From Escherichia coli (lineage in GTDB: Bacteria; Pseudomonadota; Gammaproteobacteria; Enterobacterales; Enterobacteriaceae): a stretch of 64,000 bases of DNA. Made by a program: the position numbers and the translations under genes. This document shows positions 1,908 to 4,638 of this stretch, piece after piece. Where the stretch lies: assembly GCF_046105845.1 (NCBI RefSeq), contig NZ_CP151004.1. One strand, written 5' to 3'. Every line of letters begins with the position of its first letter. Position 1 is the first letter of the stretch. The notes beneath the pieces are model-generated. The model ran no database searches, was not told where the DNA came from, and saw only the letters and a list, made by a program, of their open reading frames with translations.

Positions 1908-2174
1908 TTGTGTGGATTTTCTGTGGTAGCGGATCCTACCACGACTCTGCAGGTTAAAAACACTGGCAGTCTGAGTGTTAATCGGTATGGATGGATTAAC
2001 ATCTGGATGGCTATTTTAGGTCAGTTCTTCACCCAATTTCCACTTTTTTTTGAATCGTGTCTCATTCTGTTAAAAACGTGGCTGGAAATTTTTCCTGACA
2101 ATGCTGGCATTCTGCGTATTTATCTTTTGCAATTTTCTGCCATTGTGGGGTATAAAACGCGGCGCGCGGCTTAA
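1908..2174 (+). CDS. Small hypothetical ORF in the metK-speA intergenic region (possibly yqgD-equivalent)
   Basis: ORF-track entry of 88 aa with no recognisable domain; position matches where small y-genes are annotated in K-12. Weak support. Confidence 0.25.
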
Positions 2175-2386
2175 ATAAAAAGCACACGACGTTTCTTTCG
2201 TGTTGCCACTTCCAGCCGGGTTGAAATCAGAGTTTTGGCTTGTGGGTTCGTCTTAACAGGCGGCCGTGGAGGTGATACGAAATAATGAACCGTTGTCTGC
2301 TGCTTAACCTGTCTCACCGTTCTGGTGAAGATTCGTTCCCCGCACTCTGCATCTCTGCTTTGCATACCTGCCGATGTTATACCCAT
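2171..2386 (-). CDS. Small hypothetical ORF (possibly yqgC-equivalent, 71 aa)
   Basis: ORF-track entry of 71 aa; length matches my recollection of yqgC but I cannot verify the sequence. Confidence 0.25.
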
Positions 2387-2521
2387 CTCGGCGCTTCTCA
2401 GGATTCAAGAGCTGGTTACAGTTACTGAGGACTGAACAAGGGCGCTCTTGTAAAAACAAGAGTTTTCTCGTGGTTTCGCCGAACTGTCACACTTACGTTC
2501 GGTTATGTGCTTAATAATGTT

Positions 2522-2653
2522 ATGAAAAAGAAACCGGTTGCGCAGTTGGAGCGTCAGCATTCACTGCTGGAAAATCCATGTGCTTATGGGTTGTTATCGC
2601 AGTTCCAGGCTGCGATAGTCGTTAACTGTTTTACACTTAATAAAATAATTTGA
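2522..2653 (+). CDS. yqgB: Small protein YqgB (43 aa), immediately upstream of speA
   Basis: ATG at 2522; translation [43 protein letters not shown]; stop TGA at 2651-2653 lies inside the speA ribosome-binding region. Confidence 0.7.
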
Positions 2654-2661
2654 GGTTCGCT

Positions 2662-4638
2662 ATGTCTGACGACATGTCTATGGGTTTGCCTTCGTCAGCG
2701 GGCGAACACGGTGTACTACGCTCCATGCAGGAGGTTGCAATGAGCTCCCAGGAAGCCAGCAAGATGCTGCGTACTTACAATATTGCCTGGTGGGGCAATA
2801 ACTACTATGACGTTAACGAGCTGGGCCACATTAGCGTGTGCCCGGACCCGGACGTCCCGGAAGCTCGCGTCGATCTCGCGCAGTTAGTGAAAACTCGTGA
2901 AGCACAGGGCCAGCGTCTGCCTGCACTGTTCTGTTTCCCACAGATCCTGCAGCATCGTTTGCGTTCTATTAACGCCGCGTTCAAACGTGCGCGGGAATCC
3001 TACGGCTATAACGGCGATTACTTCCTCGTTTATCCGATCAAAGTTAACCAGCACCGCCGCGTGATTGAGTCCCTGATTCATTCGGGCGAACCGCTAGGCC
3101 TGGAAGCCGGTTCCAAAGCGGAGTTGATGGCGGTGCTGGCACATGCTGGCATGACCCGTAGCGTCATCGTCTGCAACGGTTATAAGGACCGCGAATATAT
3201 CCGCCTGGCATTAATTGGCGAGAAGATGGGCCACAAGGTCTATCTGGTCATTGAGAAGATGTCAGAAATTGCCATTGTGCTGGATGAAGCAGAACGTCTG
3301 AATGTCGTTCCTCGTCTGGGCGTGCGTGCGCGTCTGGCTTCGCAGGGCTCCGGTAAATGGCAGTCCTCCGGCGGGGAAAAATCGAAGTTCGGCCTGGCGG
3401 CGACTCAGGTACTGCAACTGGTTGAAACCCTGCGTGAAGCCGGGCGTCTCGACAGCCTGCAACTGCTGCACTTCCACCTCGGTTCGCAGATGGCGAATAT
3501 TCGCGATATCGCGACAGGCGTTCGTGAATCCGCGCGTTTCTATGTTGAGCTGCACAAGCTGGGCGTCAATATTCAGTGCTTCGACGTCGGCGGTGGTCTG
3601 GGCGTGGACTATGAAGGCACCCGTTCGCAGTCCGACTGTTCGGTGAACTACGGCCTCAATGAATACGCCAACAACATCATCTGGGCGATTGGTGATGCGT
3701 GTGAAGAAAATGGTCTGCCACATCCGACAGTAATCACCGAGTCGGGTCGTGCGGTGACTGCACATCACACCGTGCTGGTGTCGAATATCATCGGCGTGGA
3801 ACGTAACGAATACACGGTGCCGACTGCGCCTGCAGAAGACGCACCGCGCGCCCTGCAAAGCATGTGGGAAACCTGGCAGGAGATGCACGAACCGGGAACT
3901 CGCCGTTCTCTGCGTGAGTGGTTGCATGACAGCCAGATGGATCTGCACGATATTCATATCGGCTACTCTTCCGGCACCTTTAGCCTGCAAGAACGCGCAT
4001 GGGCTGAGCAGCTTTATTTGAGCATGTGCCATGAAGTGCAAAAGCAGCTGGATCCGCAAAACCGTGCTCATCGTCCGATTATCGACGAGCTGCAGGAACG
4101 TATGGCGGACAAAATGTACGTCAACTTCTCGCTGTTCCAGTCGATGCCGGATGCGTGGGGGATCGACCAGTTGTTCCCGGTTCTGCCGCTGGAAGGGTTG
4201 GATCAAGTGCCGGAACGTCGCGCTGTGCTGCTGGATATTACCTGTGACTCTGACGGTGCTATCGACCACTATATTGATGGTGATGGTATTGCCACGACAA
4301 TGCCAATGCCGGAGTACGATCCAGAGAATCCGCCGATGCTCGGTTTCTTTATGGTCGGCGCATATCAGGAGATCCTCGGCAATATGCACAACCTGTTCGG
4401 TGATACCGAAGCGGTTGACGTGTTCGTGTTCCCTGACGGTAGCGTAGAAGTAGAACTGTCTGACGAAGGCGATACCGTGGCGGACATGCTGCAATATGTA
4501 CAGCTCGATCCGAAAACGCTGTTAACCCAGTTCCGCGATCAAGTGAAGAAAACCGATCTTGATGCTGAACTGCAACAACAGTTCCTTGAAGAGTTCGAGG
4601 CAGGTTTGTACGGTTATACCTATCTTGAAGATGAATAA
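2662..4638 (+). CDS. speA: Biosynthetic arginine decarboxylase
   Basis: ORF 2650..4638; sequence from [25 protein letters not shown]... recognised as SpeA; ATG at 2662 with a gagg SD gives 658 aa. Confidence 0.96.

Follow-up and report, generated by a model that had tools for sequence, protein, structure and literature searches.

The small upstream reading frame yqgB and the translation-initiation region of speA in Enterobacteriaceae: comparative indications of translational coupling in a conserved, structured leader

In the 64,000-nucleotide (nt) stretch of Escherichia coli DNA analysed here (the window; contig NZ_CP151004.1 of assembly GCF_046105845.1), the small gene yqgB lies directly ahead of speA, the entry to the arginine route to putrescine in enteric bacteria. 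Translation of the window gives yqgB 43 codons on the plus strand (2522-2653), from an ATG at 2522 to a TGA at 2651-2653, and speA begins with the ATG at 2662-2664, which opens a 658-amino-acid (aa) frame matching biosynthetic arginine decarboxylase. An identical E. coli segment is annotated in RefSeq with both genes at the same positions, in the order metK (opposite strand), yqgD, yqgG, yqgB and speA; yqgB is the second of two small open reading frames (ORFs) within the speA leader, after yqgG. An 881-nt query around the site is matched at 95% identity or more in 5,425 of 5,426 complete E. coli genomes, and at 99% or more in 5,420. Synthesis of SpeA is feedback-controlled by polyamines and cyclic AMP, and to our knowledge the mechanism of this control has never been resolved. 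The comparative pattern described below points to yqgB-speA as an uncharacterised case of the known translational coupling between an upstream ORF (uORF) and its main ORF.

At the junction of the two genes, the yqgB stop overlaps the first two bases of the speA Shine-Dalgarno (SD) element (T-GA-GGT), begins at -11 relative to the speA ATG and is separated from that ATG, on the same strand, by 8 nt (2654-2661). This SD (GAGGU, 2652-2656, plus strand, 5 nt before the ATG) is the sole SD-like element ahead of the annotated start and belongs to a TTGAGGTTCGC block that is near-invariant among 64 distinct sequences. Initiation at the annotated start, which yields the long 658-aa isoform, appears as a peak in both INRI-seq and Ribo-RET (PMC9825163). 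A preliminary description of the locus had the length of yqgB, its TGA and the speA ATG at the right coordinates, as translation and RefSeq annotation agree, and erred in setting the stop between SD and ATG, the TGA in fact overlapping the 5' half of the SD (U-GA-GGU). A second TGA on the plus strand (2667-2669, +5) lies inside ATGTCTGA; it is not the stop of E. coli yqgB and serves as the uORF stop in relatives. In co-directional gene pairs, no class of stop-to-start distance is commoner than -8 to +10 nt, and this range has been tied to termination-reinitiation by experiments and by statistics on 2.66 million gene pairs (PMC10666635). Because the class is so common, the E. coli geometry taken as a single instance is not beyond chance; its conservation exceeds chance.

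That conservation was followed by scanning a genome collection with the first 246 residues of SpeA and keeping the best 80 of 584 relatives, at species level, from Enterobacteriaceae and Erwiniaceae; 78 of the 80 loci had enough upstream sequence for leader comparison. Presence of yqgB was scored by its start motif ATGAAnnnGAAACC, and all 60 Enterobacteriaceae loci that keep this start have a uORF reaching the speA initiation region, in one of two registers. In register A (34 loci), the uORF ends with the TGA at -11, on the SD, with a spacing of +8 nt. Register B (26 loci) ends with the TGA at +5 in ATGTCTGA, across speA codons 2-3, which gives a -8 overlap of the classical ATGNNTGA type and a 48-aa product ending in ...EVRYV. 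The register switches through 1-2-nt indels within Phytobacter, Silvania, Citrobacter youngae and Enterobacter. Both TGAs persist whichever one is used, the -11 TGA in 24 of the 26 register-B loci and the +5 TGA in 34 of the 34 register-A loci, and both are under further constraint, since the SD, the Ser-Asp codons and a stem involve them as well. Conservation of the overlap, the check that the preliminary description had proposed, therefore extends over two registers, neither of them ever in frame with speA (60 of 60 loci, insertion carriers included), and supports its suggestion that the geometry permits coupling or occlusion; the exact overlap of stop and SD is present in just 34 of the 60 loci.

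The frame also stays open through changes in its length. At five loci the uORF has taken up 21, 51 or about 128 extra nt, and in each it is open and ends at -11 or +5, with products of 55, 60, 90 and 91 aa; further protein-database variants of 70, 91 and 111 aa (P0020, P0026, P0029) likewise end in EVRYV. The insertion of about 128 nt is MITE-like (resembling a miniature inverted-repeat transposable element), with ends TATACCC...GGGTATAC, and is found in two Enterobacter lineages, the 51- and 21-nt forms lying outside these; the insertions are at L026:1233-1508 and L043:1236-1508 in our numbering of loci, and also at L021, L042 and L035. In Erwiniaceae the yqgB ATG is lost, and the +5 frame is open over 39-115 codons in 17 of 18 loci, often from a conserved GTG at -145 with GGAG 8 nt ahead. 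Erwinia sp. OLFS4 (L079:1476-1508) has the uORF body deleted, with TACAATGATAT now beside the SD, and keeps an 8-codon ORF (ATGATATTAGAGGTGAATGATGTCTGA) whose end is still the +5 TGA.

Equally important is the kind of selection acting on the frame. Over the first 37 yqgB codons in 50 distinct sequences, entropy at codon positions 1, 2 and 3 is 0.60, 0.65 and 0.60, which shows no codon periodicity; conserved codons are invariant at their synonymous positions also, and variable codons change radically (codon 10, for example, encodes E, V, G, F, A or Q). The C-terminus varies in both sequence and length (LNKII, LVNKI, LNTKS, LVINN, ...EVRYV). Frame 0 contains no stop in 50-58 distinct sequences, against polymorphic stops in 10 codon columns of frame 1 and 9 of frame 2 (Fisher p = 2.7e-4 versus frame 0), with at least 18 independent out-of-frame stops in the columns of yqgB; of 116 comparisons with an alternative frame, 114 find that frame closed. 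Additionally, the ATG is invariant among the loci with a yqgB start, and all 60 uORFs stop at UGA, in the contexts UGAG or UGAC. Selection appears, from this comparison, to keep the yqgB frame open and translated rather than to preserve its peptide, and a frame that is free of stops while its peptide is not conserved fits the prediction for a coupling ORF acting in cis. In yqgG, by contrast, the C-terminal QDSRAG is kept through synonymous changes, its Arg being encoded as AGG, AGA, CGG or CGA.

At the RNA level, the speA start is predicted to be closed by hairpin 3 (2655-2707, plus strand), in which GUUCGC at 2655-2660 pairs with GCGAAC at 2702-2707 and CUGACGA at 2666-2672 with UCGUCAG at 2692-2698. 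Within the hairpin fall the final G of the SD and, in an internal loop, the speA AUG; its apical loop (2673-2691) is variable. Its minimum free energy (MFE) in E. coli is -21.2 kcal/mol; it recurs in the MFE structure of the whole 607-nt leader (leader z = -3.0) and in the RNAalifold consensus, 97% of its alignment cells are paired (41 sequences), and it is the MFE fold in 54 of 61 distinct sequences (mean -19.4 kcal/mol). The dominant published Term-seq 3' end, which is Rho-associated, maps to 2719 on the plus strand (K-12 3085854, 57 nt into speA; PMC7815308 supplement), 12 nt downstream of hairpin 3, a position consistent with a stable structure in vivo. The partition function gives the speA SD an unpaired probability of 0.06-0.07, and opening the interval from -20 to +13 at the speA start is predicted to cost 10.6 kcal/mol, of which about 6 would be paid by a ribosome on the yqgB stop. 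The prediction accordingly includes what coupled gene pairs have, an inhibitory structure at the downstream start. The core of the yqgB start is predicted to be open (1.9 kcal/mol), which may explain how initiation could occur there without an SD. Furthermore, synonymous sites in speA codons 1-54 (2662-2825) are unusually conserved (entropy 0.47 versus 0.99 later, at degenerate codons of conserved residues; p = 0.004), even though SpeA is least conserved over its first 18 residues. Two candidate long-range pairings in the surroundings of hairpin 3 (ACUGU/ACGGU from the E. coli MFE structure, and UACAC/GUGUA found by eye) were rejected as lying outside the alignment consensus and broken in the Cedecea/Buttiauxella group, and an anti-SD pairing (CUUAA/UUGAG, E. 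coli MFE) was set aside as not conserved in that group.

Two further hairpins lie within yqgB itself, and the conserved yqgB codons coincide with them. Hairpin 1 (2555-2569, plus strand; CAGCA/UGCUG) is 94.6% paired and falls on the Q-H/R-x-L-L codons; its A-U to G-U changes keep the pair yet alter His to Arg. Hairpin 2 (2589-2627, plus strand, codons 23-36; -12.6 kcal/mol, z = -2.7) is conserved in its lower stem and covaries in its upper stem, where three pairs have changed on both sides, in 3, 18 and 11 sequences. Between hairpin 2 and the AT-rich tail of yqgB stands an invariant block, AACTGTTTTACACTT (2624-2638), and a similar TGTTTTACA is found just before the yqgB ATG in most genera; a search for pairing partners or known motifs returned none for these blocks. 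A scan for internal promoters gave only a weak match (2622-2649), and no terminator was found between yqgB and speA.

The long isoform is not the only product of speA, since an alternative in-frame start lies 26 codons inside the gene and yields a shorter isoform, which is cytoplasmic (PMC9825163). This start, at Met27 (ATG 2740), has the SD AGGAGGU at 2729-2735, displayed in the loop of a small hairpin at 2720-2745 on the plus strand. Readthrough of the yqgB UGA would lead to the TGA of the Met27 ATGA (2654-2743 open); that stretch is open in only 41 of 67 distinct sequences, and its openness in E. coli is probably coincidence.

Several of these elements have a published history. Adams et al. 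(2021, PMC7815308) used reporter fusions and northern blots to demonstrate Rho-dependent premature termination in the speA 5' untranslated region (UTR), and the same study flagged yqgB-speA as an uncharacterised candidate uORF pair with a 3' end less than 200 nt downstream of the uORF. Its 5' UTR construct maps to 2164-2661 of the window, and a second published Term-seq 3' end maps to 2278. In Salmonella, deletion of yqgB was found to lower speA and speB mRNA, arginine decarboxylase and spermidine, with rescue of the phenotype by arginine or polyamines (PMC13159126, 2026). That the ORF exists, where it lies and that it is a suspected uORF are thus already in print; a published analysis of the stop/ribosome-binding-site geometry or of its conservation was not found in the accessible literature.

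Taken together, these observations lead us to put first, with about an even chance of its being right, a positive translational coupling of the long SpeA isoform that works by unfolding and reinitiation. yqgB would be a cis-acting translated leader ORF whose translation matters and whose peptide does not, placed in a leader of about 500 nt that is conserved and rich in structure, with the order yqgG, terminator-like hairpin, yqgB, speA. Ribosomes on yqgB would run into the speA initiation region and stop on the SD (-11) or 8 nt into speA (ATGTCTGA), melting the hairpin at 2655-2707 that pairs the end of the SD and encloses the long-isoform AUG, and the same ribosome or a new 30S subunit would then initiate at the ATG at 2662. 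Termination-reinitiation and RNA unfolding are the two coupling models of a current review (PMC12548453), and the favoured mechanism combines both. Because Met27 has its own strong SD, the coupling would be limited to the long isoform, and the short isoform would be made independently of yqgB. A likely secondary effect would be that continuous ribosome cover from yqgB into speA limits Rho-dependent premature termination. We infer from this pattern the dependence of speA initiation on yqgB translation, its positive sign and its isoform specificity. Such coupling would explain why the frame reaches the initiation region, why +8 and -8 are both acceptable, why the peptide is free to vary and why deletion lowers arginine decarboxylase.

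A number of points weigh against this coupling. The hairpin at its centre has a modest z-score (-1.66; 11 of 200 shuffled sequences fold as well), and its changes are one-sided and mostly wobble-compatible, with no compensatory doubles, so that it is not proven by covariation; in its arms, too, lie the ribosome-binding site, the first codons and the conserved SSAGE codons, which offer other possible causes for their conservation. A ribosome terminating in register A would not lift the predicted barrier completely, about 6 kcal/mol being left; the thermodynamic estimate thus yields a partial effect and speaks only weakly for coupling. Moreover, the two TGAs are near-invariant whichever is used, which makes termination there a by-product of any open upstream frame; their presence is for this reason not evidence for selected termination at these sites, and what is informative is an upstream frame maintained open as far as the initiation region rather than the stops themselves. 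As regards the input of ribosomes, E. coli yqgB lacks an SD, and its start, which INRI-seq detected in vitro, went undetected by Ribo-RET in vivo (PMC9825163); ribosome flux through yqgB may be low. The Salmonella deletion does not isolate translation, because it removes leader RNA structure too. Finally, the reinitiation half of the model is uncertain, because one source reports ribosome recycling not to be critical for coupling in E. coli (PMC7538156).

A stop codon placed on an SD could also work in the opposite direction. A ribosome with the UGA at 2651-2653 in its A site covers both the SD and the AUG of speA, so slow termination there could block speA initiation, and yqgB would then damp or gate speA, perhaps in a signal-dependent manner. 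Such occlusion would accord with the UGA that ends all 60 uORFs, with the report that closely spaced upstream sites occlude ribosome-binding sites in S. meliloti (PMC13285730) and with the rule that downstream initiation must wait for the terminating ribosome to leave (PMC12548453). An arrest-peptide role for yqgB was, however, rejected on account of its variable C-terminus, its lack of codon periodicity and its overexpression signature, which in an arrest-peptide screen fell among the heat-shock (aggregation) inducers and not in the arrest-like cold-shock class (PMC11890864), and the variable C-terminus, together with the lack of peptide-level selection, makes a programmed termination arrest unlikely. 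The sign of the deletion effect is also contrary to occlusion, arginine decarboxylase falling in Salmonella and not rising (PMC13159126), and the speA initiation site is predicted to be structurally closed even without yqgB. On balance we consider occlusion unlikely.

The absence of peptide-level selection bears as well on the proposal that YqgB is a trans-acting small protein, concerned with acid stress or promoting virulence, in which case the stop/SD overlap would be compact operon packing with generic, non-regulatory coupling. Full-length YqgB matches two curated families, Pfam PF11036 (E = 4e-33, 113.3 bits, cut-off 24) and NCBIfam NF033844 (E = 6e-26, 90.1 bits, cut-off 35), and is annotated as an acid stress response protein. 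This annotation is said to go back to the work of Hobbs et al. in 2010. The residues GLL and AIVVNCF are invariant, tagged YqgB is among the small proteins that PMC7815308 reports as validated, citing Hemm 2008, and the authors of the Salmonella study, who observed binding of ranitidine to YqgB by surface plasmon resonance, read the protein itself as a drug target (PMC13159126). Against these observations, variability at third codon positions does not exceed that at first and second ones, and the invariant residues fall on the arms of hairpins 1 and 2, with their synonymous positions invariant too. The ORF tolerates insertions of as many as 48 codons and a C-terminus that varies. The family is, moreover, narrow: an exhaustive search of 1.84 billion protein representatives returned 14 matches at E <= 0.001, about a dozen 50%-identity clusters, and a word-indexed protein search found YqgB matches only in Escherichia/Shigella. 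The deletion phenotypes, finally, are rescued by arginine or polyamines, and the main text of that study mentions neither complementation nor polarity (PMC13159126). A role of the protein in trans is in our judgement improbable.

Turning from the coupling junction to the upstream part of the roughly 500-nt leader (2164-2521, plus strand, 2164 being the 5' end used by Adams et al.), the whole region from 2164 onwards is conserved across genera. The first small ORF, yqgG (2285-2428, plus strand), has an invariant, strong SD (GGAGGUGAU / GGAGGTGAT, 2268-2276) and a C-terminal peptide conserved at the amino-acid level, as in arrest-type uORFs; its body contains the sole C-rich, G-poor stretch, resembling a Rho utilization (rut) site, at 2275-2404. 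About 16 nt after the yqgG stop follows a terminator-like hairpin with UUUUCU (2444-2463, plus strand), in which each of seven of the eight pairs shows both-sided changes in at least one sequence. Between this hairpin and the yqgB start lies hairpin 0 (GCCGAAC...GUUCGGU, 2478-2503, plus strand), with four of seven pairs covarying; compensatory examples are CCGGAC/GUCCGG in Trabulsiella and CUGAAC/GUUCAG in Kluyvera. By its layout, yqgG with these hairpins looks like a leader-peptide attenuator ahead of a yqgB relay, and the yqgG leader peptide with its covarying hairpin may be the more interesting part of the leader than yqgB. A characterisation of yqgG was not found in the literature consulted on the speA leader and yqgB.

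An extended version of the coupling, which we regard as doubtful, would make the leader a sensor and relay built from two uORFs. Here yqgG would sense a metabolite (polyamine, arginine or agmatine) and decide on the continuation of transcription, by means of its strong SD, selected C-terminal peptide, rut-like body and terminator-like hairpin, and yqgB would relay ribosomes into the locked speA start. In this way the leader would govern how much SpeA is made and in what proportion the long isoform, reported to be envelope-targeted, stands to the short cytoplasmic Met27 isoform. If true, this would supply the missing mechanism for the polyamine feedback repression of arginine decarboxylase synthesis.

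Some smaller features surround the yqgB start. A two-codon mini-ORF, ATG TTA TGA (2517-2525), overlaps the yqgB ATG in ATGA fashion, and ATG-NTA-TGA is kept in most genera. An in-frame GTG at 2507 is conserved, with GGAG 8-9 nt ahead of it in Cedecea, Buttiauxella and Erwiniaceae. Positions 2513-2518 read as a conserved -10-like TACAAT/AATAAT with no -35. The common reading frame of yqgG and yqgB in E. coli is not conserved elsewhere and was dismissed as coincidence.

The rut-like stretch also matters for a transcriptional account, in which yqgB ribosomes would block upstream-loaded Rho before speA translation begins and speA initiation would be independent of yqgB. The proven Rho termination in the speA 5' UTR, with its 3' end less than 200 nt beyond the uORF (PMC7815308), the fall of speA and speB mRNA in the Salmonella deletion (PMC13159126) and the ribosome-free gap of just 8 nt between yqgB and speA all suit this anti-polarity account. 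The only C-rich, G-poor stretch, however, lies inside yqgG, the yqgB region having more G than C, and anti-polarity needs neither an ORF that precisely reaches the speA initiation region nor hairpin 3. As a sole explanation it seems to us quite unlikely; it is compatible with the favoured coupling, the two not being exclusive, and a secondary role for it is plausible.

The weakest contender, a leader acting as RNA only, in which hairpins and blocks that bind proteins or small RNAs are conserved and the yqgB frame is open incidentally without functional translation in vivo, would account for the block-wise nucleotide-level conservation without codon periodicity, for conserved codons that hairpins 1 and 2 explain, for the missing SD and the start undetected by Ribo-RET (PMC9825163) and for the lack of any matching Rfam family, and is very improbable in view of an invariant ATG, a frame open through insertions, no frame-0 stops in 50-58 distinct sequences against at least 18 independent out-of-frame ones, initiation in vitro (PMC9825163) and the tagged protein reported in PMC7815308.

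Given selection on translation and not on the peptide, cis-acting coupling would become the default hypothesis for yqgB, and yqgB deletion phenotypes may reflect the mere loss of speA expression. Furthermore, the comparison exposes a conserved, structured leader with two uORFs that no RNA family describes: searched over positions 1880-2900 at E <= 5, Rfam gave only a spurious SNORD46 match (E = 1.7).

Among known systems, the closest in form are the coupled gene pairs rpmI-rplT, atpH-atpA and phage coat-lysis. These share with yqgB-speA a stop and start within -8 to +10 nt (+8 in E. coli, and +8 or -8 in all 60 loci), a predicted inhibitory structure at the downstream ribosome-binding site, and an SD that lies inside the end of the upstream ORF or directly beside it. 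They differ in that their upstream ORF is a subunit gene, whereas yqgB is a 43-codon leader ORF without a conserved product, and in that speA has a second in-frame start 26 codons in, so that only one isoform would be coupled.

A second comparison is with the arrest-peptide uORFs of speFL-speF, mdtU-mdtJI and tnaC-tnaA. Like these, yqgB is a small ORF in the leader of a polyamine gene with Rho-dependent premature termination, and it has been listed as a candidate beside mdtU (PMC7815308). Unlike them, it shows no peptide-level conservation and has a variable C-terminus, its overexpression gives no arrest-like signature, and no rut-like stretch adjoins its stop; of the two small ORFs, the upstream yqgG is the better match to this class.

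The occlusion of ribosome-binding sites in S. meliloti (PMC13285730) offers a third parallel, in that a ribosome on an upstream element physically covers the main ribosome-binding site. There the element is an upstream initiation site a few nt from the main one, whereas the element in yqgB is a site of termination, 140 nt beyond the start of the uORF, and the deletion data suggest activation rather than repression. As for the YqgB family, the E. coli sequence is a full-length member of both PF11036 ('virulence promoting factor') and NF033844 ('acid stress response protein YqgB'); these names imply a protein function, whereas the comparative pattern argues for translation in cis, and not the product, as what matters.

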